Source: a virus
Taxonomy: Duplodnaviria; Heunggongvirae; Uroviricota; Caudoviricetes
Strand: one strand, 5' to 3'
DNA length: 64,000 bases
IMG/VR virus record: IMGVR_UViG_3300048904_000041
Location: 37,544 to 101,543 of that record
Part shown: positions 2,891 to 37,675 of the stretch, one piece after another
Position numbering within the stretch: position 1 is the stretch's first letter
Layout of the letters: each line of letters starts with the position of its first letter
Notes under the pieces: generated by a model
Databases searched by the model: none
What the model was told of the DNA's origin: nothing
The model's input: the letters and a program-made list of their open reading frames with translations, nothing else
Made by a program: the position numbers and the translations under genes

Positions 2891-3131
2891 TTGCTGTCAA
2901 TACAAAATCAGCTACGGCATCGTATTCAGCAGTACCATCTACACCCTTCTCAAGACGATCTTTCACATGAGCAAGAGCTTGATCAGAGTACACCAGAATG
3001 GATAAGACATCAAGCTCACATGCGTAATCCAGCAGGTAATAGAACCGCTCGTGTACCGAATATTCATCAGGTGTGGGTTGAAGACTGTCAATGATGTCAA
3101 GCAACTTTTCTTTACTCATTTTTCGATCCAC
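2865..3131 (-). CDS. hypothetical protein
   Basis: 88-aa ORF. Confidence 0.5.
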   Translation of the reverse strand: MDRKMSKEKLLDIIDSLQPTPDEYSVHERFYYLLDYACELDVLSILVYSDQALAHVKDRLEKGVDGTAEYDAVADFVLTANERGFKIV

Positions 3132-3258
3132 TCATAACCAAGGATTTTTACCAAACTACCACTACGATAGTACAGGTTGAATCCGAATAAGTCAAGACGT
3201 TCCACATATCCAATTCGACTATATTCAAGCCAAAGGAACGCCCACCTGTGTTCGCGTT

Positions 3259-3657
3259 TCACACCACACTCCTTACTCCAACCAGACGAACAACACCACC
3301 GAAGTCAATGAAACCTTTACCAATCCCGATGATCCCACCTACCTCTACATCATCTTGCTCAAGAACACGGATTGCACCTGTCGCTGTGCACTCAAACTTC
3401 GCACCTGCATAACTCAGACCTCTGTGACGATTGATTAGACGTTGACACCATGTGTGGTATCGGCTGTCACGGTCGAACTTCCAGAGGTCTTGTAGCTGGA
3501 ACTCAAGCTCACGCAGGTATGCGAGACGCATGGGAAGGTCATGTACAGCCAGTGTATTGTCAATGATAACTTCCATATGCTCATGTAGAAGATCGATCAG
3601 ACGAACATCGTCATCCGAAATACCACGTTGTGAAGCGAGTTGACGGTTTGCAGCCAT
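3259..3657 (-). CDS. hypothetical protein
   Basis: 132-aa ORF, start overlaps upstream stop. Confidence 0.5.
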   Translation of the reverse strand: MAANRQLASQRGISDDDVRLIDLLHEHMEVIIDNTLAVHDLPMRLAYLRELEFQLQDLWKFDRDSRYHTWCQRLINRHRGLSYAGAKFECTATGAIRVLEQDDVEVGGIIGIGKGFIDFGGVVRLVGVRSVV

Positions 3658-4091
3658 TACCTTTTACTCCATTTGAATTTGTCAACAATCATAGACCAGA
3701 TGGTGCGAGATTGCAAGCGTTTGATTTCATCTTTCAGCGACCAGATTTCATCCATCGCCAAACGTCTTCCGACAATAACACCTTGATCATGTGCTTCGTC
3801 TTTGAACATCGTCACAATCTTTTCAAGGTCACGATCCATGGCAATGAACCGCTCATCTTTCAGATACAGGTGGTCATTACCTTCTTGACCCGGTTGACCG
3901 ATGAACGTTGTGTTGCTAACTCGATGAACCCGAGCATTGTGCTGGATACCTGCCTGTTTTTCAAGAAAGACGTCATCACTATTTACACAGCGATGGGGTG
4001 ATTCGAAGTACATCATTGGAAGAATGTCACCATACGCAATCACGTTAGCTTTGGTGACCTTAAATAGCGTTACATTACGACTTGCTACCAT
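3657..4091 (-). CDS. hypothetical protein
   Basis: 146-aa ORF (track start is TTG; ATG 2 codons in). Confidence 0.5.
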   Translation of the reverse strand: MVASRNVTLFKVTKANVIAYGDILPMMYFESPHRCVNSDDVFLEKQAGIQHNARVHRVSNTTFIGQPGQEGNDHLYLKDERFIAMDRDLEKIVTMFKDEAHDQGVIVGRRLAMDEIWSLKDEIKRLQSRTIWSMIVDKFKWSKR

Positions 4092-4267
4092 TACCAAACC
4101 CCTAGAGCTTTACCCTGTTCACGTAGAATGTCACCTAGCGCACGACCTTCAGTGACGATCATGTCACCCTCACGCATCTGCCAAGGGCGAGCATTGTCAT
4201 CCACTTTAACGAACGAGTAACCAGCTTTTTCAAGAGTAGCTTTTACAACAGATGCGAGACCAAACAT
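4091..4267 (-). CDS. small hypothetical protein (58 aa, MFGLASVVKATLEKAGYSFVKVDDNARPWQMREGDMIVTEGRALGDILREQGKALGVW)
   Basis: ORF below track cutoff, TAATG-coupled to downstream gene. Confidence 0.35.
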   Translation of the reverse strand: MFGLASVVKATLEKAGYSFVKVDDNARPWQMREGDMIVTEGRALGDILREQGKALGVW

Positions 4268-4276
4268 ATCTAATCC

Positions 4277-4714
4277 TTAATCAGTCAGTTTAACCAGTGT
4301 GCAGATACCGTCTACTTTATCAGCGTATGCTTGTTTAATCAAGCTAGCTTTCTCTTCAGCAGATGGTTGACGGTCACGAATAATTGTGACAATGAACAAT
4401 ATCAGTACGGCTGATGTAATTCCCCAACCGGCAGCGCCGAAAGCATATGCAAACGCAGCCCAAGTACCTTTCTCAAACACCACACCCATAATCAATTGGA
4501 TCGGTGCTGCAATCATACTCACAACAGTACCAACAATGAACGCGATAAATACAAGCATAATTGCACTAAACCAAAGAGCAGCAATCAACGACCATGTAAC
4601 TGCACGGATGTACGTGCATGTGGTGTGACAGCCAAGATCAAACTTGTTCTTCGCAGTGCGTGTTCCGAAACGATCAACTGCTTTGTAGTGCCAAGAGTTT
4701 TTAGAAATGTTCAT
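4277..4714 (-). CDS. integral membrane protein (3-4 predicted TM helices)
   Basis: long hydrophobic stretches LIAALWFSAIMLVFIAFIVGTVVSMIAAPIQLIMGVVF / AGWGITSAVLILFIVTII; ATGA-coupled to upstream ORF. Confidence 0.55.
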   Translation of the reverse strand: MNISKNSWHYKAVDRFGTRTAKNKFDLGCHTTCTYIRAVTWSLIAALWFSAIMLVFIAFIVGTVVSMIAAPIQLIMGVVFEKGTWAAFAYAFGAAGWGITSAVLILFIVTIIRDRQPSAEEKASLIKQAYADKVDGICTLVKLTD

Positions 4715-5031
4715 ACTACACCATATTCCTTTTTCAGAGTATCGAGTTGAAGTTGACGATTGTCAATCGAAATTTGAAGCAGTTCGAGTTTATTACGCAT
4801 GTCTTCAAGATCTTTATCGATTATTACAATCTCATGAATAACATCCATAGTCATCTTCTTCGGTTCGATATACAGCTGGAAGCATTTATCATCATAAGTA
4901 CCTTCATGACCTTCAAGGGAAATACCTGTAGGTACTTGATGAGTAACCGTATAAATACCACCTTTATACGTATTCATGTAATTACCACTAATACGAATTA
5001 CTTTGCTACCGGGTTCAAAAATCTGAGTCAT
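4711..5031 (-). CDS. hypothetical protein
   Basis: 106-aa ORF, start overlaps NTase stop (ATGA). Confidence 0.5.
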   Translation of the reverse strand: MTQIFEPGSKVIRISGNYMNTYKGGIYTVTHQVPTGISLEGHEGTYDDKCFQLYIEPKKMTMDVIHEIVIIDKDLEDMRNKLELLQISIDNRQLQLDTLKKEYGVV

Positions 5032-5975
5032 TTAATTTCCCCTTCAAATGGTTTCAGTAGGTGAGCGTTTTTGATGAATCGCTCTGTGTAATCATTCTCG
5101 CCCATCTGCTTGTACAGGTCAAGCACTTTATCGTAATTTTCCCATGCATATTCACGGAACCAGCCACTGGTGATACTTGTGCACACCTTCTCCAGCGCCT
5201 TCATAAAGCTCTCACGTGGTGTTGGGCCACATTCCTTACCCAAGGTGAAAGGAATCTGAGAACGCTCCAGAGCAAGCACACAGGTCTCTTCGTACACACC
5301 ATACAAGCGGATGTGTTCGTGAACACCCATAAACTTCTCTTTAGAAGTCATAACTTCAGAACCATCCTTCATATAGAAGGTGTAAGCAGGTCTGGTAGTA
5401 TGATAGTACCCTCCGTCAACCTCATACGACTCGGTTTTCAACGCTACAGTAAGGTGAATACTGTCGTGGTCGTACACATACGGAACCCCATCACCGTCAA
5501 AGAACTCCTGTTTGCTGACATCCAGCTTAGGGTGCTTGTATGTGTAGGTTTCACGCTCACGCTGTTTGAACCACTCACTCTCAATAATCAACTGAGCATC
5601 TGGCGAAACATGCTCGCGAAGTAGCTTAATATCACGCATAGTCTTCGCAAAGTGTGTACTGTTCCGTAGGTAGCGGTGACTCATCTTCAAGGCGTAGAGC
5701 CAGTCTACAGAGGCTACACCTTCACCACCGTAAACGTCAAGCAATGCACGTGCTGCTGTACCTTCCCAAGCGATTTCGAATTCATTGTTCCATCCGTCTT
5801 TGGTGACCACGTGGAACTTGGTGTCCGACAGTGGTGTACAATGCTTAATAACAGCCTTGTTCTCACGTGTCCATTTCTGGAACTGTTCAAAGGTGCAGAT
5901 GCGGTCAGTGTCAGCCGGTGTACGATCAATGAGTAGACCGTGGTACTCAAGTGCAGCAGATCCAATTACAAGCAT
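5028..5975 (-). CDS. Pol-beta-superfamily nucleotidyltransferase-fold protein
   Basis: N-terminal hG[GS]x(9-13)DhD signature: VIGSAALEYHGLLIDRTPADTDRI; 315 aa. Confidence 0.5.
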   Translation of the reverse strand: MLVIGSAALEYHGLLIDRTPADTDRICTFEQFQKWTRENKAVIKHCTPLSDTKFHVVTKDGWNNEFEIAWEGTAARALLDVYGGEGVASVDWLYALKMSHRYLRNSTHFAKTMRDIKLLREHVSPDAQLIIESEWFKQRERETYTYKHPKLDVSKQEFFDGDGVPYVYDHDSIHLTVALKTESYEVDGGYYHTTRPAYTFYMKDGSEVMTSKEKFMGVHEHIRLYGVYEETCVLALERSQIPFTLGKECGPTPRESFMKALEKVCTSITSGWFREYAWENYDKVLDLYKQMGENDYTERFIKNAHLLKPFEGEIK

Positions 5976-5984
5976 TTCAGTGTC

Positions 5985-6122
5985 CTATGGTAGCAATGGT
6001 TTACTGTGACGTTGTGTCATCAGTTTCGAATACAGAGATGGTAAATCAGGTGTGACACGTTTGTCAATCCATCCCCGTAGAATATACTTACGCTTGAGCA
6101 TCTGAATGTTGTCCATGTACAT
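5985..6122 (-). CDS. small hypothetical protein (MYMDNIQMLKRKYILRGWIDKRV...)
   Basis: AAGGAC RBS before ATG; the longer track ORF 5985..6299 has S/T-rich low-complexity N-part likely spurious. Confidence 0.3.
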   Translation of the reverse strand: MYMDNIQMLKRKYILRGWIDKRVTPDLPSLYSKLMTQRHSKPLLP

Positions 6123-6132
6123 ATGTGTGTCC

Positions 6133-6531
6133 TTAGCAAGAGTGGTCGGAGTGCATCCATTTGACTGCTGATTCCAATGGGTCAGTTGATTCCAAGATCG
6201 GGTCAACACTCCAAGTGTCCCATGGGCACCAGTCGAGCATGTTGTCGATGTCATTGTTCTTTGCGAACTCACGGATTGAATCAGCATCAATGGAGACACG
6301 CTCTTTGAATGCTTCGATCATTTCAGCTAGTTTACCGAGAGCTTCACGCTTTGACAACACTTCGTTTACTTGCTTAGCTTCACGCTTCTGTGCTGCTAGC
6401 AATTCACGTGGTCGGTTTTCTTCCCAAGTGCTTCCGGGAACCCATGGTTGGGAAGGTGTATCAAGAATGGTCTGACGGGCAACACGGTTCACTGGAAGAT
6501 CAAGGTTGTCAAGAATTTCATTAACGTTCAT
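6133..6531 (-). CDS. hypothetical acidic protein (start at MNVNEILDN...)
   Basis: AGGAGATGTACA-ATG RBS; earlier in-frame ATG lies within promoter -35. Confidence 0.5.
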   Translation of the reverse strand: MNVNEILDNLDLPVNRVARQTILDTPSQPWVPGSTWEENRPRELLAAQKREAKQVNEVLSKREALGKLAEMIEAFKERVSIDADSIREFAKNNDIDNMLDWCPWDTWSVDPILESTDPLESAVKWMHSDHSC

Positions 6532-6557
6532 TGTACATCTCCTGTTTAGATGCGACC

Positions 6558-6586
6558 AGTGTACCACCTTGAACACCAGTGTCAAC
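6558..6586 (-). promoter_or_regulatory. sigma70-type promoter (UP + TTGACA-16-TACACT)
   Basis: GTCAACATTTATTTTAG motif copy. Confidence 0.5.
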
Positions 6587-6603
6587 ATTTATTTTAGACA
6601 AAA

Positions 6604-6628
6604 GAAAACCCGCCGAAGCGGGTCTCTT
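6604..6628 (-). terminator. rho-independent terminator (ACCCGC-CGAA-GCGGGT)
   Basis: identical hairpin to 2204-2219. Confidence 0.65.
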
Positions 6629-6630
6629 GT

Positions 6631-6900
6631 TTAGCAGTGTGCCGAGCTGGAAGACCAGTTGTCAGCATCAGCCCAACTGAATTCCTCATAACCCGAACTG
6701 TAGTAGAACTTCAGGTCTACGGACTCAGCAAGCTTTTCAGCTTCAGATACAAGGGTGTTCAACTGAGCCTTGATTTCACGAAGCTTTAGGATTACTTCTT
6801 GACGACTATCGCGAATAGTATTCTTGTACTCAAGCTCAGCCTTAGCCATTTCTTCTCGCATGATTTCAAGCTGACGACGTGTCATACCTGCGTGACTCAT
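6631..6900 (-). CDS. hypothetical coiled-coil protein (start at MSHAGMTRRQLEIMREE...)
   Basis: AGGAGAAAGATA-ATG RBS; avoids overlap with upstream gene. Confidence 0.5.
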   Translation of the reverse strand: MSHAGMTRRQLEIMREEMAKAELEYKNTIRDSRQEVILKLREIKAQLNTLVSEAEKLAESVDLKFYYSSGYEEFSWADADNWSSSSAHC

Positions 6901-6913
6901 TATCTTTCTCCTA

Positions 6914-7381
6914 TTAGCAGCGGGACGATGCCCAATCCGAGTTCTCATCAAGGTCTGCAACACCAGCAGGCATACTGCAAGTGTAAGGCAAACCAGCTTC
7001 GTGGGACAGAGTCATTGCTTGTTCAACTGCGTTGTAAGCGACCTTATTCAACTCAGCAATCTTACCCATGTTCTCTTTACGCTTCTCTTCGATTTCAGCT
7101 ACGAAGTTTGGACGCTCAGCAATGAATGCAAAGAACTCTTCACGGGTAACCTCTTCACCTTCATCGTATTCGTCAAGATATGGAAGTTCACCATCCACTT
7201 CAAAGCCTACGTCATATTGTCGAGTACCACCACCATAAGGACTGGTGTAGTCGTATTTCCAACCTTCGAACACCACTTCACTGTTGTTTTCGTGTCGAGC
7301 TACAACACCTTCAGGCCAGTCGTTGTAATCGTGTTCAGTTTGGTTTGCAAATTCCAGTACCAGAAATTCTACCAAGTTCAT
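6914..7381 (-). CDS. highly acidic hypothetical protein (D/E-rich, aromatic-rich)
   Basis: 155 aa with runs such as YLDEYDEGEEVTREEF, VADLDENSDW. Confidence 0.55.
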   Translation of the reverse strand: MNLVEFLVLEFANQTEHDYNDWPEGVVARHENNSEVVFEGWKYDYTSPYGGGTRQYDVGFEVDGELPYLDEYDEGEEVTREEFFAFIAERPNFVAEIEEKRKENMGKIAELNKVAYNAVEQAMTLSHEAGLPYTCSMPAGVADLDENSDWASSRC

Positions 7382-7668
7382 GCTTTTTCTCCTTCAGGTT
7401 GTTTTACATTTGTTTGTTCAAGTACATCATCATTAAGCGGTGGAATAGGCATAAGGTAACGGGTGATGATCCGACGCTGACGTTTATCCTCACTAAAGCT
7501 AATCCATGTATATGATTCATGTGGACTTGTCGATTTAAGCTCACCCGGTTTTAGGATGGTATCAACCATCGCACAGCGACCTAAGAATTCAGAATTCTCA
7601 GAAAATTCGACATTTATGATAATCGCAGGTTGACCCTCAACAATGTTATTCGGGTTGAACGGTTGCAT
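7378..7668 (-). CDS. hypothetical protein
   Basis: 96-aa ORF, ATGA overlap. Confidence 0.5.
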   Translation of the reverse strand: MQPFNPNNIVEGQPAIIINVEFSENSEFLGRCAMVDTILKPGELKSTSPHESYTWISFSEDKRQRRIITRYLMPIPPLNDDVLEQTNVKQPEGEKA

Positions 7669-8077
7669 CTTCTTTCTCCACGAATTTGTAAACGTTGTAA
7701 CGAACAGTAGTCATACCACCTTCACGACTAATGCTGTTTTGACTACCGAGATACATACTAGCCGACCAACCATTTGGTGCATCTTGCTCAGCATGGATCT
7801 TACCGATTTCCTTACGGATGACATCTTTGTCATAGCTATCGCATTTGATCGTTTGTACACGTGGTTCCGTCACCTTGACTTTACCGACGTTTTGAAGACC
7901 GCGAACTTCAATAGGTACTTCAGTCGTGTACAAACCAGTAATACACTCACCGAACTGCTGAGCTGTAAGCTTGATTTCTGCAAAATGAATGTTGCTATCA
8001 CGGTCTTCGATCTTGATATAGACATTGCCGTCAGACGAACGAGCAATGCAGATGTTACCGTTGATTACCTGAGTCAT
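7646..8077 (-). CDS. hypothetical protein
   Basis: 143-aa ORF. Confidence 0.5.
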   Translation of the reverse strand: MTQVINGNICIARSSDGNVYIKIEDRDSNIHFAEIKLTAQQFGECITGLYTTEVPIEVRGLQNVGKVKVTEPRVQTIKCDSYDKDVIRKEIGKIHAEQDAPNGWSASMYLGSQNSISREGGMTTVRYNVYKFVEKEDATVQPE

Positions 8078-8283
8078 TATTCTTTACCCCATTTACTTAC
8101 AGAACGGTCAGTTGTCAGGAATGTTTTGGATCGATACTCAGTCGAGTCAAGGATAGATTGTGACTCTTCCTTTGTCAATACAATACCTTCTTTATAACGA
8201 AAAACCATACCAATCAGGATAAGCTCCATCAAAATGAGGATCATACCATTACTGTTCAGGAATTCGATTACTTGAGTAGACAT
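8077..8283 (-). CDS. small membrane protein
   Basis: hydrophobic MILILMELILIGMVF. Confidence 0.4.
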   Translation of the reverse strand: MSTQVIEFLNSNGMILILMELILIGMVFRYKEGIVLTKEESQSILDSTEYRSKTFLTTDRSVSKWGKE

Positions 8284-8474
8284 TCTTCTGTTCCTAGTTT
8301 TAAATGAATTTCGCGGATCGCCGCTTGATATTGAACATCCTCAAGATACTCGATTGGGATATCACTGTCAAGCCAATGAGCAAAATGTTCTTCAAGACAG
8401 GTCATCCCGAGGGACAGTCCGTACTTGCAATCGGCTACAGCCATTTCATGATCGATATTCATTCTTCTCTCCAT
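8268..8474 (-). CDS. hypothetical protein
   Basis: 68-aa ORF. Confidence 0.4.
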   Translation of the reverse strand: MERRMNIDHEMAVADCKYGLSLGMTCLEEHFAHWLDSDIPIEYLEDVQYQAAIREIHLKLGTEECLLK

Positions 8475-8719
8475 CTAAGGATTGCTGCATCGAGAGCATT
8501 GCACCAGTTAGTACCGGTTGCATATATATCGGCTGTTTCCATATCCCATACAAATGAATGTTGAGGCATTACCCGTGTATGGATAGTAAACCGACCATCA
8601 AGTGTACAAAGAAACTCAATCCGATGTCTATCGTCGATCATCATTGTCATCCCACTCTTCGTCAAGTTCAGGCTCATATTGTCGCTCACGTTCAGCGATG
8701 TCGTCAAGGTATTTATCAC
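8459..8719 (-). CDS. hypothetical protein
   Basis: 86-aa ORF. Confidence 0.4.
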   Translation of the reverse strand: MINTLTTSLNVSDNMSLNLTKSGMTMMIDDRHRIEFLCTLDGRFTIHTRVMPQHSFVWDMETADIYATGTNWCNALDAAILRWREE

Positions 8720-8775
8720 GCTTGTCTGGCACTACTGACGGACGGTTGTAGTTGTGCATGTTCTTAGCTACCCAA

Positions 8776-8967
8776 TTACCCTTCATGATATTCCCCTAAA
8801 TTGTATTCTTTCTTTACAGAATCCCAAAGCTCACGTTTGTTATCTAAACTACCTTGAGCAATAACCGTGCTGCACCCACCGTCACAACCTTGTGTTTCGC
8901 TAACTTTTGTGTGATTCAGAAGTAATGCTAGATCACCATTCTTGAAAATCACCCAACTGGTGGTCAT
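8776..8967 (-). CDS. hypothetical protein
   Basis: 63-aa ORF. Confidence 0.35.
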   Translation of the reverse strand: MTTSWVIFKNGDLALLLNHTKVSETQGCDGGCSTVIAQGSLDNKRELWDSVKKEYNLGEYHEG

Positions 8968-8997
8968 TTGTGCTTCTCCACAAGTTCAAGCATTTCA

Positions 8998-9354
8998 TCA
9001 AGCAGCATCAAATACTTCTCCTTCTTCAAGTTCAAGTTGAAGCTTACGAGACGCAATCTCACCAGCTTGGAGTCGATTGAATTCGACCATATGGTGACGC
9101 ATCTTTTGTAGTTCGTCAATCCATTTATCGAGTTTTTGCAACCGCTTTTCGAAATCACCTTTCTTCCGGCAGTCGAAGTCAATGACTGCACTGTCATGGC
9201 AGTCAGAAATCTTGACACTGGCGGTCATCATATCACTACCTTTCTTAATCTGATACGCATAGATATCATCCGGGTGTGGTGTTTCAACAGTAACCACAAT
9301 GTTACCGGTTTCATGTGCGTGTTCGGTGAAGAATTGCTTGCTTACATAACGCAT
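8998..9354 (-). CDS. hypothetical protein
   Basis: 118-aa ORF (preferred over overlapping 8964..9218 frame). Confidence 0.45.
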   Translation of the reverse strand: MRYVSKQFFTEHAHETGNIVVTVETPHPDDIYAYQIKKGSDMMTASVKISDCHDSAVIDFDCRKKGDFEKRLQKLDKWIDELQKMRHHMVEFNRLQAGEIASRKLQLELEEGEVFDAA

Positions 9355-9500
9355 TTGTTAAGCTCCAAGTTGTTCAATAATAGAAAATACCATGATACTA
9401 GTCAATATGATTTCTGCCAACCCAATCATCATTGATCCGACATATACATCTTGGTCGATCTTACCAGTGTAACGCAGAAAGGTACTGCTCAGCAAGGTAA

Positions 9501-9698
9501 TCATTTCTCTTCTCCCGGTTGAATCCCATCACGTTCGTATTGACGTAGATTTCTCAGGAATCCCTCGGCATTGTATTTGAGGTGGCTTGAGTAGAGGTAC
9601 TTACCTACACTCCCATCGATATCTTTCATGTCCTCAACGTACCAGCAGGGCTTCCCTTTGCGACCTCGATTGGTCATCTGATAGCGACTCTTGTTCAC
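9501..9698 (-). CDS. hypothetical protein
   Basis: 65-aa ORF with GGAG RBS, downstream of promoter at 9731-9757. Confidence 0.45.
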   Translation of the reverse strand: MNKSRYQMTNRGRKGKPCWYVEDMKDIDGSVGKYLYSSHLKYNAEGFLRNLRQYERDGIQPGEEK

Positions 9699-9730
9699 GG
9701 TGTGGCTCCTGTGTTTGATGTGGTAATGAT

Positions 9731-9757
9731 ACCAGCTTTTGGCAGGGTGTCAACATT
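9731..9757 (-). promoter_or_regulatory. sigma70-type promoter (TTGACA-16-TATCAT)
   Basis: GTCAACATTTATTTTAGG motif copy. Confidence 0.45.
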
Positions 9758-9771
9758 TATTTTAGGCAAAA

Positions 9772-9794
9772 GAAAACCCCGCCGAAGCGGGGTT
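9772..9794 (-). terminator. rho-independent terminator (CCCCGC-CGAA-GCGGGG)
   Basis: hairpin followed by T-run on minus strand. Confidence 0.6.
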
Positions 9795-9799
9795 GTGGG

Positions 9800-11086
9800 T
9801 TACCGAAGCTCATACCATCGTGTGAGTGTACGAGTACCAAGAGAAGAACCTTTCAAGCGATACTCCCAACCTTGCGGAACGGTCACGTTACAAACGGTTG
9901 AAACAGTAGGGCCATTGGTTGTGCTACTTACAGTCGTTCCAAAAAATGAAAAGATTGTACCTGATGAGTTTTGACGGGCTTCAATCAAGACATATGCACC
10001 ACTGTTCTCAGCGCTTGTCGCGATATAAATATCAGTCTCTACATCTGATGGTGTCGCATACCAAACATCCTTAACATTGGTAGCTAATAGGTCGTGCCAA
10101 GTTCTTTGTCTGCGTGGTAGGAACGTTGGTAGATTGGCTACAGGTACTCTAGAACTTGAGTCTAAAGGTGCAACACCATTAGCCGCATTCTTTTGGTTGA
10201 GTGGAATAAAGGTTGAGTCAGCATACGTCTTGGCTGCTGCCTGTGCAGCTGTAGCCTTCGTCTGAGAACCCGTGGTTGTTTCCTTAGCGTCCCATGTTGA
10301 AATCTGCGTTGGAGTCAACCATTTACGGTTTGTACCTTCCGTAACCAAATCAGCAGTATAATCACCCAATGCTGGGGAAACAGCACCAGATCGTCCGTTG
10401 AATGACGTGATTTTGGTGGCACTTGCCGCTGTAGTCCATTGTGTGATTTGATCGGATGTGACAAATCGTTTATCTAAAATCTCAGTAATCTGACCAGTAT
10501 TGTAATCACCAGACATAGGCCCAATATTACCAGTTCGACCGTTAAACGATGCTACACCAATACCTTGAGCATTACCAAGCTTAGACCAATTGTTGCTGAT
10601 TGCTGGGTCTGCATTAGCATCCAGTCCCCAAGCATCACCTGTGTCACTCTGATAGGCGATTGTGAGGTCAGCATAGACAGGGAGGGCAAACCGTGAGGCT
10701 TGGTTGGCTACGTTCACCTTGCGACCTACAGGGAACTGAGGTAGCTGTTCATACGGGACTTTACCATTGACCAACCCAGCCTTGGTCAACAGCGAAGCTT
10801 CTGCTGCTGTAATCCGACCATCTTGAGCTGTATCTGTTGCTTTCAATTCTGAAATCTGTGTAGAATAGTCTACCGTATCTTTGTTCTCAAGTGTTACAAC
10901 CCGCTGGTCAATTTGAACAATGGTTGAATCCTGAGATGCGTCCTTGGCCTGTAGCTCCTGAATTTGAGAGCTATAGTCAGTTCCACCGGGTGGCAATAGA
11001 ACGTTGTCGAACATTCCAGATTCAACAGTTCCCAAAAGGCCAACTGTACGGAGTGCTGCTGTTAGTTCGGATCTTGTAATATCCAT
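9800..11086 (-). CDS. tail-fibre-repeat protein (SFNGRTG / Phage_fiber_2-like repeats) located in early region
   Basis: repeats ASFNGRTGNIGPMSGDY, TSFNGRSGAVSPALGDY; start moved to MDITRSEL (AAGGAAAT RBS). Confidence 0.6.
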   Translation of the reverse strand: MDITRSELTAALRTVGLLGTVESGMFDNVLLPPGGTDYSSQIQELQAKDASQDSTIVQIDQRVVTLENKDTVDYSTQISELKATDTAQDGRITAAEASLLTKAGLVNGKVPYEQLPQFPVGRKVNVANQASRFALPVYADLTIAYQSDTGDAWGLDANADPAISNNWSKLGNAQGIGVASFNGRTGNIGPMSGDYNTGQITEILDKRFVTSDQITQWTTAASATKITSFNGRSGAVSPALGDYTADLVTEGTNRKWLTPTQISTWDAKETTTGSQTKATAAQAAAKTYADSTFIPLNQKNAANGVAPLDSSSRVPVANLPTFLPRRQRTWHDLLATNVKDVWYATPSDVETDIYIATSAENSGAYVLIEARQNSSGTIFSFFGTTVSSTTNGPTVSTVCNVTVPQGWEYRLKGSSLGTRTLTRWYELR

Positions 11087-11164
11087 GATATTTCCTTTTA
11101 TTAGACATGATTCGAATCTAAAGTATAGCACCATTTGTCGAAAATGTAAATAGAAGTGAAAAGA

Positions 11165-11184
11165 AAACCCGCCGAAGCGGGTTT
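11165..11184 (-). terminator. rho-independent terminator (ACCCGC-CGAA-GCGGGT)
   Basis: same hairpin family. Confidence 0.6.
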
Positions 11185-11195
11185 CTGTGGTGCGA

Positions 11196-11474
11196 TTACA
11201 GCGTCTGTGAAAGCTCCCATAGGCGATTGCCTATCTGGTCACCGTAAACGTCTTCAATCTCATCGTAGAGGTTGTGAGGTAAGAAATACCATCGTTCATC
11301 AACCAACACTCGACAGTAAACAACCTGCCATTCGATGTCGGTAAAATCACCACCCAGTGTGAGACCTTTAACCGCGAGAGTGGATGTGTTTTCCACTCCC
11401 ACGATAAGGTCAAACTCAGAGGGTAAGAAGCTGGCCTTGATATTGTTAAGCTCCACTTCATACGACTCGTTCAT
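11196..11474 (-). CDS. hypothetical protein
   Basis: 92-aa ORF. Confidence 0.45.
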   Translation of the reverse strand: MNESYEVELNNIKASFLPSEFDLIVGVENTSTLAVKGLTLGGDFTDIEWQVVYCRVLVDERWYFLPHNLYDEIEDVYGDQIGNRLWELSQTL

Positions 11475-11483
11475 TTGGCTCTC

Positions 11484-11690
11484 CTAGTTTACTCTACGAA
11501 TAGTCCGGTACGCCTCAGTCAGAGTTGATTTAACTCGCTCTTTGCCATCGGCACGCAGGACACGGTATTTCCCACGACCTGCTTTGATGATGATCCCGAG
11601 CGATGTTTCACCGTCCTGTGTGTAGACATGACGAATGTCACTACCTACGTTTTCACTCAGACGTACAAGCACTTTGTTGGATTTGCTCAT
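11484..11690 (-). CDS. small hypothetical protein, possibly S1/IF1-like OB fold
   Basis: 68 aa; weak resemblance to IF1 pattern. Confidence 0.35.
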   Translation of the reverse strand: MSKSNKVLVRLSENVGSDIRHVYTQDGETSLGIIIKAGRGKYRVLRADGKERVKSTLTEAYRTIRRVN

Positions 11691-11811
11691 TTTACACCAC
11701 CAGATTCGAATTTAAGAAATTTCGCTTACGCTGGCTTCTTGCCTTCCCCCATCCAGTGAGATGAATACTAGACCCAACCCTTCCTGCTGTCCACTACCGT
11801 TCATCAGATGT

Positions 11812-11838
11812 GAAAAAGCCCCACCGTAAGGTAGGGCT
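11812..11838 (-). terminator. rho-independent terminator after nrdA (AGCCCTACC-TTAC-GGTGGGGCT + TTTTT)
   Basis: seen on minus strand. Confidence 0.6.
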
Positions 11839-11843
11839 CATTA

Positions 11844-13535
11844 TCACTGACAAGCTGCGCATTCACCATTTGAAGCTTGAACACCTGCTTGACCGTACGT
11901 GTAGTAGCAGCCGTGCATGTTTTCGTCTTCAACGATCATCCACATCACATCACTGATGTATTCCTCACCTAGGTCTGAGGACAGGAATAGGTTGAACGAC
12001 TGCCACTGACACAGCTCAGGCCCACGTTGTGACGCTTGACGAATTTGAGCGTATGGGTCAATCTCAAATCCAGTCTTGAACACTGCCTTGGCTTCGTCAG
12101 ACAACCAGTTAACACGCTGACAGCTACCCATTGCTTCACGAACCTCACGGATACGAGCTTTAGAGTAAAGACCTTCGCGTTTCAAGTATTCAAGGAACTC
12201 AGGGTTCACACGATCCACTTCACCAGCAGCAGTCCGTTGCGTTTTAACCAATCCGTCTTCGGTGTTGATACCTTCAGTGACACCTCCCATGATAAGTGCT
12301 GTAGACTTCGTTGGGGCAACGCTCAGTCGGTGTGTGTTGGCATAACCATAACCTTTACACCACTCAGGCTCACCATAAACGGAAGCAATCCACTGACTAG
12401 CACGCAACGATTCAGCATTCAAGTGCTTAAAGATTTCGACATTCAGGAATGTCGCCTGCAAGCTTTCAAAAGGAAGCATCTCACTCATGTACAAGGAATG
12501 CAGACCACACAGACCCAAACCAAGGGCACGACTCTTCTTTGTGAAACGTACAGCCTTCTCAAGACCTTTGATATTCTTTGCACGCTCAATGAATTCCTGA
12601 GCAACACAGTCGAGGAATACTGTTGCGATAAACACCGCATCGGTATGTTGCCACTCACGATACTTACGACCGTTCATCGAAGCAAGCACACAAGTATAAG
12701 TGTGTTCGATATCATTGAACAAGCTAATTTCGTTGCACAGTTGAGCAGCTTTGACATACAGACCATGATCCACATAGGTCTCAGGACGTGCACGATTCAC
12801 TTTATCAGGGAAGTACATGTAACCCTTACCTGTGACCATGCGAGTCTTGTTCAATTTCTGCCACCGGAAATCAGTTTCGACATCACCATCATTCACAAGC
12901 TGAGTGTCGCTATCATGCCAGTTCCAACCAATGTTCACACCATCATCGTGAGCAATCAGGTAGTCAACAACCTCATGGAAGTCACCGTGACTAACAGGAA
13001 GGTAAGCTGCAAATGCACCACGTCGGGTTGTGCCTTGGGCAACGTAGGTCATATCTGATTCCATACCTTCGATTACAGGAAGGACACCAGAAGACTTGCC
13101 ACCAATGGAAATCTTAGCACCACGTGGTCGAATATCACCGAGATAACCGGCTGTACCGAAACCATGCTTTGTCAACAGTGCCACTTCTCGCTTGGCTGCA
13201 TAAATCTCATCAATCGAGTCAGGGAAGTACACACCAGCACAGCTTACAGGAAGTCCACGTGTAGTACCGGTGTTGGACAGAATTGGTGTCGATGGTGACA
13301 ACCATCCTTTCCACATAATGTCAAAGAATTTCTCACACCATACAGCAGGATCAGGGGTGTGTGCTGAAAGTGTACGAGCAATTCGCATGTACTGCTCACG
13401 TGGTGTTGCTGCTTGATACAGATACTTCTCTTTAAACAACTGCCAAGAACCTGTAGACCAATGGGCAGGCATTTCGCCCGTCTCCTGCATCTGCTTGCGT
13501 TCTTTACTAAGGGTTTCGTAAGTTACTGCTGTCAT
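11844..13535 (-). CDS. nrdA: ribonucleotide reductase large (catalytic) subunit
   Basis: motifs SPSTPILSNTGT, VSCAGVY, QLCNEISLF (catalytic Cys-x-Glu). Confidence 0.8.
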   Translation of the reverse strand: MTAVTYETLSKERKQMQETGEMPAHWSTGSWQLFKEKYLYQAATPREQYMRIARTLSAHTPDPAVWCEKFFDIMWKGWLSPSTPILSNTGTTRGLPVSCAGVYFPDSIDEIYAAKREVALLTKHGFGTAGYLGDIRPRGAKISIGGKSSGVLPVIEGMESDMTYVAQGTTRRGAFAAYLPVSHGDFHEVVDYLIAHDDGVNIGWNWHDSDTQLVNDGDVETDFRWQKLNKTRMVTGKGYMYFPDKVNRARPETYVDHGLYVKAAQLCNEISLFNDIEHTYTCVLASMNGRKYREWQHTDAVFIATVFLDCVAQEFIERAKNIKGLEKAVRFTKKSRALGLGLCGLHSLYMSEMLPFESLQATFLNVEIFKHLNAESLRASQWIASVYGEPEWCKGYGYANTHRLSVAPTKSTALIMGGVTEGINTEDGLVKTQRTAAGEVDRVNPEFLEYLKREGLYSKARIREVREAMGSCQRVNWLSDEAKAVFKTGFEIDPYAQIRQASQRGPELCQWQSFNLFLSSDLGEEYISDVMWMIVEDENMHGCYYTYGQAGVQASNGECAACQ

Positions 13536-14545
13536 TCCGTTACCTCTTTATTACGTTTGATACGGCTGAAACCTTCAAGATTCCAATCACGTGAATATTG
13601 GTTACCCTTACTGTTAAAGAAGTCCTGCGAGCTATATCCAGTGATACCCTTATAGAACCATTCTTCAACAACTGTGTTCTTAACTTCAAACAATGGATCG
13701 TAACCCATGTTAGTCAAACACAAGTTGATACGATGCTTTGCAAACTCTTCAAGTTGATGTGATGTAATACCATCAATGGTACCTTTCTCAAAAATCTTAC
13801 CGATAATTACACGCTCATGTTCTAAAACCTTCTGTGCAGCGGCATAGATGTCGAGTTGTAATTTATCTTCATCTTCTTGCGTCCAAAAACCCGCTTCAAT
13901 CTTCTCTTTTTTCAGTGTACGAAACAACCATGCGGCTGCAATGCTATGAAGATGCTCATCACGTGCACTAAAATTGATACCCGATACTACGTTCACAAGC
14001 TTATTCTTTCCGCTTGACTGAAAGTGCTTCAAGTAAGCAAAGCTGGTGTACAGAATTGCACCTTCACCAAATGTGAATCCACCAAGGGCACGAAGGTCAT
14101 CAGCTTCATCAAGAGTATTAGTTAGGAAGTCAATCCGTGCCTTCAACTCAGGATCGTTAATGTACGCATTATAGAACTCAAAGGTTGCAAGACCCAGCAC
14201 TTCATTGAGCTTCTTGTAGAAGAACTGATGGATACCCAGTTCTACACCACCAAAGGTTGCTGCCATCGGTTGGATGTCAGCAGCACGTGGGAACTTCTTC
14301 ATTACGAAGTTGATCCAGAACTCGTTACCGATGATCCACTCATACTTGGTGAACAGACGGAGCGTGGTGATAACACCATGACGCTCCTGCTCAGTCAAGT
14401 TGACCATGAAATCTTGTTTATCCTTTTCAACCTTGACCTCGAAATGAGGCCAATAGATTGTTTGTTGCTGATTCATAAACTCAATGGCTTCAGGGTAATC
14501 AGAAATAAACCCTTCATCAACTGTTTGGATACGTGTCAAAGTCAT
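13532..14545 (-). CDS. nrdB: ribonucleotide reductase small subunit (R2, di-iron/tyrosyl radical)
   Basis: paired E..H motifs (VELGIHQFFY, ARDEHLHSIAAAW); ATGA-coupled upstream of nrdA. Confidence 0.75.
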   Translation of the reverse strand: MTLTRIQTVDEGFISDYPEAIEFMNQQQTIYWPHFEVKVEKDKQDFMVNLTEQERHGVITTLRLFTKYEWIIGNEFWINFVMKKFPRAADIQPMAATFGGVELGIHQFFYKKLNEVLGLATFEFYNAYINDPELKARIDFLTNTLDEADDLRALGGFTFGEGAILYTSFAYLKHFQSSGKNKLVNVVSGINFSARDEHLHSIAAAWLFRTLKKEKIEAGFWTQEDEDKLQLDIYAAAQKVLEHERVIIGKIFEKGTIDGITSHQLEEFAKHRINLCLTNMGYDPLFEVKNTVVEEWFYKGITGYSSQDFFNSKGNQYSRDWNLEGFSRIKRNKEVTE

Positions 14546-37470: not shown

Positions 37471-37675
37471 GATTGTTTTGTCAGCGTTGCTTGGTGTGTT
37501 GATGGGTATCGGTTTGATCGTTGTAACATTTGACACAGTTGAACCTGTAATCAGATCGACATCTAAATCTGTGGCTCAAGTTTTTGCAAAACCAGTTAAG
37601 AAACTTATTGACATGGAACCTAAACGTCAGTATCCTGTTGGTACTTTTGAACATGAGCATAAGAAGACGATATGA
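37460..37675 (+). CDS. small membrane protein
   Basis: MNFKIVLSALLGVLMGIGLIVV TM helix. Confidence 0.45.
   Translation: MNFKIVLSALLGVLMGIGLIVVTFDTVEPVIRSTSKSVAQVFAKPVKKLIDMEPKRQYPVGTFEHEHKKTI

Follow-up and report, generated by a model that had tools for sequence, protein, structure and literature searches.

With which gene product does a phage nucleotidyltransferase (NTase) act? This question is raised by a stretch of 64,000 nucleotides from a virus of the class Caudoviricetes, positions 37,544 to 101,543 of the IMG/VR record IMGVR_UViG_3300048904_000041, which we will call the window. It encodes on its minus strand a protein of 315 amino acids (aa) which belongs to the Pol-beta superfamily of NTases. 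In the initial annotation this gene was placed in a functional triad, together with the two genes which follow it and code for a 106-aa protein and for a multi-transmembrane (TM) protein. Our results point to the other side of the gene. Small proteins encoded upstream, which we call tail proteins, are the only strongly conserved genomic partner of the NTase, and they fall outside the region 4277–5975 occupied by the triad. By tail we mean a shared extreme C-terminus, W-x-S-S-S-x-x-C-stop, or its shorter form W-x-x-S-S-C-stop. The NTase and the tail proteins form a widespread two-component module of phages, with a linkage which is tight, bidirectional and found across families. The features of the module in the window are the following:

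6914..7381, minus strand: tail protein 1, 155 aa, ends ...ENSDWASSRC-stop (short form of the tail); tail codons 6917..6934
6631..6963, minus strand: tail protein 2, 110 aa from GTG, ends ...DNWSSSSAHC-stop; tail codons 6634..6657
6133..6588, minus strand: tail protein 3, 151 aa as longest reading frame, ends ...KWMHSDHSC-stop (variant tail); tail codons 6136..6159
5028..5975, minus strand: NTase, 315 aa, Pol-beta NTase core, helical lobe and novel C-terminal domain
5904..5963, minus strand: codons of the metal/nucleotide motif G5-S6...D22-x-D24 of the NTase, placed by conservation and model strands
5781..5783, minus strand: codon of the third carboxylate E65 of the NTase, placed by conservation and its position on a strand of the model
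5085..5699, minus strand: DUF7275 region of the NTase, residues 93–297, Pfam match

The C-terminal tail motif is present in 3 of the 470 six-frame open reading frames (ORFs) of the window: all three lie directly upstream of the NTase on the minus strand. The homologues of tail protein 1 in three other loci with the NTase (L004, L005 and L001) end in DW(A/Q)SSRC. Tail protein 2 matches phrog_899 (E 3e-6) and more likely has 89 aa, from the ATG at 6900, rather than 110 aa; its homologue in L005 has 89 aa and ends in DQWNSSSAHC. Tail protein 3 is also more likely to be shorter, with 132 aa from the ATG at 6531 rather than 151 aa. The genes found at the same place in L004 (132 aa) and L005 (131 aa) end in KWMHSDHSC and KWMYSDHSC. 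Tail protein 3 is the last gene ahead of the NTase, with a gap of 157 nt between them. In this gap (5976..6132) there is no convincing gene, and a promoter-like site is found at 6067..6038; the equivalent gap in L004 has 159 nt.

To count the linkage, 82 loci were turned so that the NTase reads on the plus strand, and all six-frame ORFs with 40 aa or more were searched for the regular expression W.{1,3}S.{0,3}C$. A module is defined by at least one ORF on the same strand, no more than 2.5 kb upstream, which ends in W-x(1-3)-S-x(0-3)-C-stop; three ORFs at 6133..7381 comply with this definition in the window. The motif was found in 213 of the 1548 upstream ORFs on the same strand, as compared with 5 of 1353 downstream on the same strand and 4 of 3144 on the opposite strand. 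Tail ORFs are present in 76 of the 82 loci (about 93%), with one to five copies in tandem in each. Their median distance from stop to NTase start is 802 nt, and 98% of the copies are found within 2.5 kb. All other neighbour families adjoin the NTase in at most 16 loci each.

The same association is found when we start from the tail proteins. An alignment of 29 of them is too poorly conserved for scanning, and a narrower one with 14 members was used instead. With the pattern YGMGG[TS]YY, taken from the body of the tail proteins, a reverse scan of viral contigs gave 27 loci. In 25 of them a match to the hidden Markov model (HMM) of the NTase is found on the same strand within 2 kb downstream; the other two are contig ends, so that all loci with enough flank (25/25) carry the NTase. 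Divergent tail proteins detected by tblastn in Aeromonas phages CC2 and AhFM11 and in the Erwinia jumbo phage Hallingskeid are followed directly by the NTase in all three cases. An independent set is given by contigs of metagenome-assembled genomes (MAGs), with NTases 33–42% identical to our query: a tail ORF lies upstream in eight out of nine, and in six its stop is within about 30 nt of the NTase start. The bins of these contigs are labelled Saccharibacteria, Bacteriovoracales, Thermosynechococcus, Flavobacteriaceae, Flavobacterium and Chitinophagales, with one unclassified. A tail protein of phage dhaeg matches 371 phage records, whose hosts span a spectrum similar to the one found for the NTase. 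In phage T4 neither the NTase nor tail proteins were found in the 59 kb examined, which include the syntenic e-to-tRNA region.

What do the tail proteins have in common? Clustering of all NTase neighbours gave one outstanding family with the tail motif at positions −4 to −1, and several further families at the same position, unrelated by BLAST, carry one or the other form of the tail. BLAST sorts the 193 distinct tail proteins into 10 clusters, of which the largest has 152 members; the tail is their only common feature. The largest cluster corresponds to phrog_899 and another one to phrog_4882. Their bodies are diverged beyond recognition, while the extreme C-termini keep either (G)-W-x-S-S-S-x-x-C-COOH or W-x-x-S-S-C. 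In the 29-member alignment the only invariant columns are the W, two S and the terminal C. The proteins are small and acidic: in the 82 loci their median length is 90 aa and their median net charge −9, and 97% of them are acidic. An N-terminal helix, AExIADEhGLxF, and the stretch YGMGGTYY are further common features of the main cluster. Pfam, PADLOC and the PDB hold no relatives of the tail proteins; only coiled-coil-like compositional matches were obtained. By analogy with other strongly acidic early phage proteins, which are often of this kind, they may be anti-defence effectors or DNA mimics. Some tail proteins (for example in L009, L095 and L099) have an internal second copy of the motif just ahead of the terminal one, as in WNDSGCSDGEWESSGC and WYGSSNCEWESSSNNC; with a strict regular expression a tandem copy is found in 3 of the 193. 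Half of the tail proteins have at least two Cys.

The other component of the module is apparently a catalytically active enzyme. It matches phrog_2141 and has two Pfam domains, DUF7277 (residues 1–80, 46.2 bits) followed by DUF7275 (residues 93–297, 232.3 bits), with a cut-off of 27; both are present in all 62 family representatives. Its alpha/beta fold is that of the Pol-beta superfamily, as had been proposed, and is supported together with a conserved GS...DxD...E triad. The identity of the NTase is confirmed by this fold evidence, since the motif string GSAALEYHGLLIDRTPADTD alone would prove little. The string itself is indeed present, but it departs from the signature quoted at first, hG[GS]-x9-13-DhD: the spacer from GS to DxD has 15 residues and the middle residue of DxD is Thr. 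In the structure model the motif residues sit on a strand (2–4), a helix (5–11) and a second strand (22–27). E65, the candidate for the third catalytic acidic residue which the initial annotation had proposed to look for, falls on a strand at 63–68. In 23 close homologues (alignment A1) residues G5, S6, D22, D24, E65 and E67 are invariant. In the 62 representatives, which are drawn from clusters at 50% identity (alignment A2), neither D22 nor D24 varies, and G5, S6 and E65 each have a conservation of 90% or more. Outside the NTase core alignment A2 has further invariant residues: K97, H100, K111, R139, H170, D171 and H174, and nearer to the C-terminus E229, E230, E237, R238, S270, G271 and R274.

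The catalytic half resembles NTases of the MenT/AbiEii and ANT(2'')/Lnu types. MenT1 is the top structural match, and MenT3 and MenT4 are also among the best. The first 55 residues or so of DUF7275 form a helical lobe as in MenT-type NTases. The rest of this region is mostly helical with one beta-hairpin and has no real neighbour in the PDB: the C-terminal 170 residues or so are a novel domain, confidently predicted in the model, with many invariant His, Asp, Glu and Arg. The helical lobe (residues 88–150) is basic (+4), the whole enzyme is acidic (net charge −9 for the query, median isoelectric point 6.3 in the family). The Pfam family DUF6036, described as nucleotidyltransferase, is matched weakly by 3 of the 62 members. 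Searches of PADLOC, NCBIfam (E up to 1) and PDB sequences with the NTase gave nothing meaningful, nor did a profile of the 62 members match any PDB sequence.

The likeness to ANT(2'') and LnuA raises the possibility of a small-molecule NTase, which would inactivate an anti-phage metabolite similar to an aminoglycoside or lincosamide, or make a nucleotide-linked one, the tail proteins being unrelated neighbours. We consider it very improbable: no resistance family of NCBIfam is matched (E up to 1), so that membership among the antibiotic NTases, which had also been suggested, is not upheld, and both the bidirectional linkage with the tails and the additional domain of 170 residues are left unexplained.

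The NTase family is large, restricted to phages and catalogued in Pfam (DUF7277/DUF7275), yet uncharacterised. We found 2472 homologues in a database clustered at 90%, and 1394 clusters at 50% identity; metagenomic relatives number in the thousands. The family is present in 725 of 50,697 phage records, about 1.4% of the sequenced phage genomes: T4-like Straboviridae, phages with a size like that of rV5, jumbo phages and Pseudomonas phages of about 95–100 kb. A scan of 185,579 bacterial and archaeal genomes, one for each species, gave only 9 NTase loci, all of them on MAG contigs; the family is therefore essentially phage-only. A search of one literature library for DUF7275 found no mention of it, and targeted searches (phage RiPP and NTase, NTase anti-defence, MenT-like/DUF1814) gave nothing on the module. 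In some T4-like phages tblastn covers residues 88–311 only, as if the NTase consisted of the C-terminal domain alone. We discarded this possibility: these are not shorter genes. In phage dhaeg, the sole case checked, the annotated coding sequence is full length (319 aa), with a diverged N-terminal part. The homologue in Alteromonas phage PT11-V22 (L089, 5001..6152) is extended at its C-terminus by some 90 residues, among them many Tyr, Gly and acidic ones; this extension is absent from other family members.

We now come to the two genes which follow the NTase:

4711..5031, minus strand: 106-aa protein, coupled to the NTase by an ATGA overlap; without match in Pfam or PHROG
4277..4714, minus strand: 145-aa protein with about 3 TM helices; phrog_944 (E 2e-13) and phrog_19964 (E 1e-10)

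Their description in the initial annotation was accurate: the three ORFs have 4-nt ATGA overlaps at both junctions, between the 315-aa and 106-aa proteins and between the 106-aa and 145-aa proteins. The last one is indeed a membrane protein, hydrophobic at residues 36–82 and 88–114 in hydropathy plots, and its two PHROG families are annotated as 'membrane protein; moron/host takeover'. The initial annotation read the three genes as an accessory module: an enzyme like a cGAS/DncV-like nucleotidyltransferase (CD-NTase) or MNT would have the 106-aa protein and a multi-TM effector as its partners or as receivers of its signal, with toxicity or phage exclusion as the outcome. Comparative genomics has largely refuted this triad, and we give it hardly any credence. 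We have compared 85 loci which encode an NTase homologue (80 viral contigs, 2 metagenome contigs and 3 GenBank phages) by tblastn. The 145-aa protein is found in just one of them, L004, the closest relative (NTase 87% identical), which keeps all three genes. Relatives of the 106-aa protein appear in 4 loci, downstream of the NTase in three and upstream in one. Already in L005, where the identity of the NTase is 73%, the membrane gene for the 145-aa protein is missing; the gene right after the NTase has no detectable kinship to the 106-aa protein and the second one is a homologue of a 58-aa gene of the window.

A more general association with membrane proteins fares no better. Counting TM proteins of any family, they are found at positions +1, +2 and +3 of the NTase in 18, 28 and 20% of the loci, close to a background of 16%; we treat this as weak because many loci are close relatives. 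In 28 of 81 loci one of the next two genes downstream codes for a TM protein. Nor does the ATGA coupling stand out. A simple greedy gene set made for the window has 79 same-strand junctions, of which 11 are 4-nt overlaps and 36 show an overlap of some kind. The region 3116–7668 is a single, tightly packed run of minus-strand genes in which coupling by overlap is the rule, hence the NTase junctions have nothing special; ATGA overlaps in tightly packed early regions of phages should not be taken as evidence of functional linkage. Elsewhere in the run ATGA or 1-nt overlaps join 7378..7668 to 6914..7381, 3259..3657 to 3116..3262 and 3657..4097 to 3259..3657. Thus the 106-aa protein is a variable accessory neighbour of the NTase, not a core partner, and the same is true of the 145-aa protein, a moron-type membrane protein.

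Other phages have other genes at this place. An HNH endonuclease is found in the downstream neighbourhood of the NTase in vB_PseuGesM_254 and Boevelstad. HNH homing endonucleases lie directly or almost directly downstream in several unrelated phages, among them L001 (5340..5753), L003 (4472..4891) and L103 (5489..6121), and the HNH neighbour cluster is present in 15 loci. This position may be an insertion hot spot.

If the module is formed by the NTase and the tail proteins, what could the enzyme do with them? Our preferred reading, which we put forward tentatively as a possibility with a little less than an even chance, is that the tails are substrates of the NTase: the hydroxyl of a tail Ser would be nucleotidylylated, and binding of the tail, perhaps together with a second activity, would fall to the novel domain. 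The presence of several paralogues in each locus, with diversified bodies and a single invariant tail, is a pattern of many substrates for one enzyme. The invariant residues are two Ser, the Trp and a Cys which is strictly the last one, and they therefore suggest recognition of a free C-terminus and a chemistry of Ser or Cys. The hydroxyls known to be O-nucleotidylylated by Pol-beta NTases belong to partner proteins in GlnD-PII and MntA-HepT, and to small molecules in the case of ANT and Lnu. We infer that the tails are substrates because enzymes which transfer a nucleoside monophosphate to a hydroxyl, ANT(2'') and LnuA, are among the nearest structural relatives, and because other members of the superfamily modify their protein partners in this way. 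The enzyme would use a nucleoside triphosphate to nucleotidylylate a Ser hydroxyl in W-x-S-S-S-x-x-C. Its novel C-terminal domain would recognise the Trp and the free terminal Cys, and it may add a second step, either removal, elimination or cyclisation. The enzyme would thereby give a set of early effector proteins of the phage a covalent mark or cap. Covalent modification of the tails, if it takes place, would be post-translational modification of a new kind, carried out by phages on their own early proteins.

Several points weigh against this reading. Six of the 82 loci have no tail ORF, although in two of them the upstream part is cut off. Related groups of phages contribute many of the loci, so that the counts do not represent independent events. 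Distant full-length NTases, with 27–31% identity, have no tail ORF within 5 kb in DSS3_VP1, PT11-V22, Gordonia BrutonGaster and Vibrio ValKK3; given these tail-less homologues, tails are not needed by the whole NTase superfamily. The proposed acceptor atom and nucleotide, and even the direction of the relationship, are deduced solely from the linkage of the genes. Furthermore the MenT toxins, the closest structural relatives with a known substrate, act on the 3' ends of tRNA and not on proteins, and about a quarter of the loci have RNA-repair genes within 5 kb.

The tail-less homologues are informative in another respect. They keep D24, K97, H100, K111, H170, D171, H174, E229, E230, E237 and R238. 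A segment which is near-invariant in the tail-associated NTases, KVCTSITSGWFRE (query residues 263–275, alignment A4), is replaced in them by a sequence similar to KTITxLTKGW. This hints at an association of the segment with the tails, and makes it a candidate tail-binding site.

The last two points of those which weigh against tails as substrates lead to a different function. The NTase could act on RNA 3' ends, like MenT, CCA-adding or RlaP enzymes: it would repair phage or host tRNAs damaged by defence nucleases, or else manipulate host translation, and the acidic tail proteins would be functionally separate or merely tune the enzyme. MenT1, MenT3 and MenT4, the best structural matches, extend tRNA acceptor ends (PMC7450476, PMC10435456), and the helical lobe with its charge of +4 would suit such a substrate. 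From jumbo phages, pairings of an NTase (RlaP) with an RNA ligase are known (PMC7824862). Within 5 kb of the NTase we find an RNA ligase in 8, a polynucleotide kinase (PNK) in 10 and a metallophosphoesterase in 17 of 103 loci. The tail-less homologue of DSS3_VP1 (L088, 2265..5891) is 1.2 kb from RNA ligase 2 and a metallophosphoesterase. However this linkage with RNA repair (about 25% of the loci) is far weaker than the linkage with tail proteins. Genes for tRNA are found within 5 kb in just 8 of 60 loci, and there is none in the 64-kb window. The enzyme is acidic overall, it has no match to the Pfam models of RlaP, CCA-adding enzymes or DUF1814, and the tails are left unexplained. In all, we consider an action on RNA ends unlikely, although it deserves serious attention. 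As an observation apart, loci from jumbo phages (L027, L030–L035, L072 and L074) have the NTase together with PNK and a calcineurin-like phosphoesterase; this RNA-repair context is a minority pattern.

The gene order suggests still another possibility, a pair similar to toxin-antitoxin (TA) systems. The NTase would be a MenT-like growth inhibitor or host-takeover enzyme and the acidic proteins upstream its inhibitors or regulators, with tails that plug the active site. A short upstream ORF followed by a bi-lobed NTase is the order of MenA1-MenT1, and MenA1, small and encoded upstream, blocks the active site of MenT1 (PMC10435456), which is the top structural match. Partners as acidic as these (median net charge −9) could lie over a basic cleft. 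On the other hand, one to five paralogues with unrelated bodies and a single shared tail of 8 residues suit many substrates better than one inhibitor, and the invariant Ser-Ser and terminal Cys suggest a chemistry rather than mere binding. Neither component has matches in PADLOC or to TA families, and the family is limited to phage genomes of virulent type. We judge such a pair improbable.

Within the substrate reading, which is the one we prefer, a more specific chemistry may be imagined. The NTase would nucleotidylylate, for example adenylylate, the tail Ser; DUF7275 would eliminate the nucleotide to leave dehydroalanine, and the terminal Cys would add to it, which would give a thioether cap similar to lanthionine or aminovinyl-cysteine (AviCys) at the C-termini of these acidic early effector proteins. 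This is a long shot. If true, it would be a new route of Ser activation, through O-AMP instead of phosphate or glutamate, and the first chemistry similar to that of ribosomally synthesized and post-translationally modified peptides (RiPPs) on whole phage proteins. What is new about this Pol-beta NTase is one of its domains and its family of partners; the chances that its chemistry is also of a new kind are small. Through the linkage of the NTase with the tail proteins, two sets of hypothetical proteins become a testable enzyme-substrate hypothesis.

The region of the module in the window has two further signals, both of them consensus matches only:

6605..6626, minus strand: terminator-like hairpin directly after tail protein 2; 9-bp stem with 5 GC pairs, then a T run
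6558..6585, minus strand: sigma-70-like promoter, TTGACA, 16 nt, TACACT, with TG (extended −10); 10/12 of the consensus

The promoter precedes tail protein 3 and the NTase. To judge from it and the hairpin, tail protein 3, the NTase and the genes after it may be transcribed from a start of their own. As a whole, the DNA of the window shows only patchy similarity to Pseudomonas phages of about 95–107 kb. The stretch 6572..14501 has 76% DNA identity to the ribonucleotide-reductase region of Pseudomonas phage vB_PpS_SYP, and three large ORFs of 444, 563 and 337 aa are found in it on the minus strand (9800..14545). The NTase module is therefore about 4 kb from genes of nucleotide metabolism.

We end by comparing the module with known systems. 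With the CD-NTases (cGAS/DncV-like), which act in antiphage signalling based on cyclic oligonucleotides (CBASS), the phage NTase shares only its membership in the Pol-beta superfamily. We found neither a cGAS/DncV-like fold nor a match to CD-NTase HMMs, and no conserved adjacent effector of the CBASS type, the 145-aa TM protein being confined to one of the 85 loci and TM proteins downstream being close to background; the CD-NTase identity proposed at first is not supported. RlaP and the CCA-adding enzymes are likewise Pol-beta NTases carried by phages, and in some of our loci the NTase is also near genes of an RNA ligase, PNK or phosphoesterase (PMC7824862). ANT(2'')-Ia and LnuA are single-domain enzymes of 160–180 aa which act on small molecules without partner proteins; their likeness to the phage NTase is structural only.

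The closest structural class of the phage NTase is MenT/AbiEii together with ANT/Lnu, without membership in DUF1814 at the sequence level. It shares with MenT1, MenT3, MenT4 and AbiEii (DUF1814) a bi-lobed build, in which an NTase beta-sheet domain is followed by a helical lobe, as well as the GS...DxD motif and, as with MenA1, the gene of a small protein directly upstream. The DUF1814/MenT toxins have four motifs, of which III (Lys) and IV (Asp) are C-terminal (PMC7450476). Motifs I and II are present in the phage NTase, and residues K97 and D115 of its lobe are candidates for III and IV: they are 18 residues apart, as compared with 15 for K137 and D152 of MenT1, a comparison by spacing. The differences are also considerable. 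The phage NTase has no sequence match to DUF1814 or to any PDB chain: the Pfam model DUF1814/AbiEii was not matched by the query (E up to 1) or by the 62 members (E up to 0.1). It is encoded by phages, acidic overall and has an extra domain of about 170 residues. The partner of MenT/AbiEii is a MazE-like or kinase antitoxin, here it is a family with multiple copies defined by the tail W-x-SSS-x-x-C.

The RiPP and lanthipeptide clusters also have tandem, diversified small ORFs directly upstream of an enzyme. The Ser-Ser...Cys at the C-terminus of the tails recalls the cores which form lanthionine and AviCys, a resemblance which is no more than a lead. In our case it is the C-terminal 8 residues which are conserved and the bodies which vary, the opposite of leader and core. 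Furthermore the tail proteins have 50–170 aa, and no enzyme of the LanB, LanM, LanC or LanD type is present.

Finally, MntA-HepT (a type VII TA system) and GlnD-PII follow the same logic which we propose for the module: a Pol-beta NTase nucleotidylylates a hydroxyl of its partner. HepT is encoded next to MntA, and GlnD couples its NTase to a second domain which removes the modification. The initial annotation had also mentioned MNT enzymes, an identity which is not supported: those are minimal proteins of about 100–150 aa, as compared with 315 aa and an extra domain, and no HEPN partner appeared among the neighbours tested (no match to HEPN Pfam models in the two downstream proteins and 10 other neighbours, including the three tail ORFs). 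MntA and GlnD are not among the top structural matches either, and the partners found here are neither HEPN nor PII. The acceptor in MntA-HepT and GlnD-PII is a Tyr, whereas in the module described here it would presumably be a Ser of the tail.

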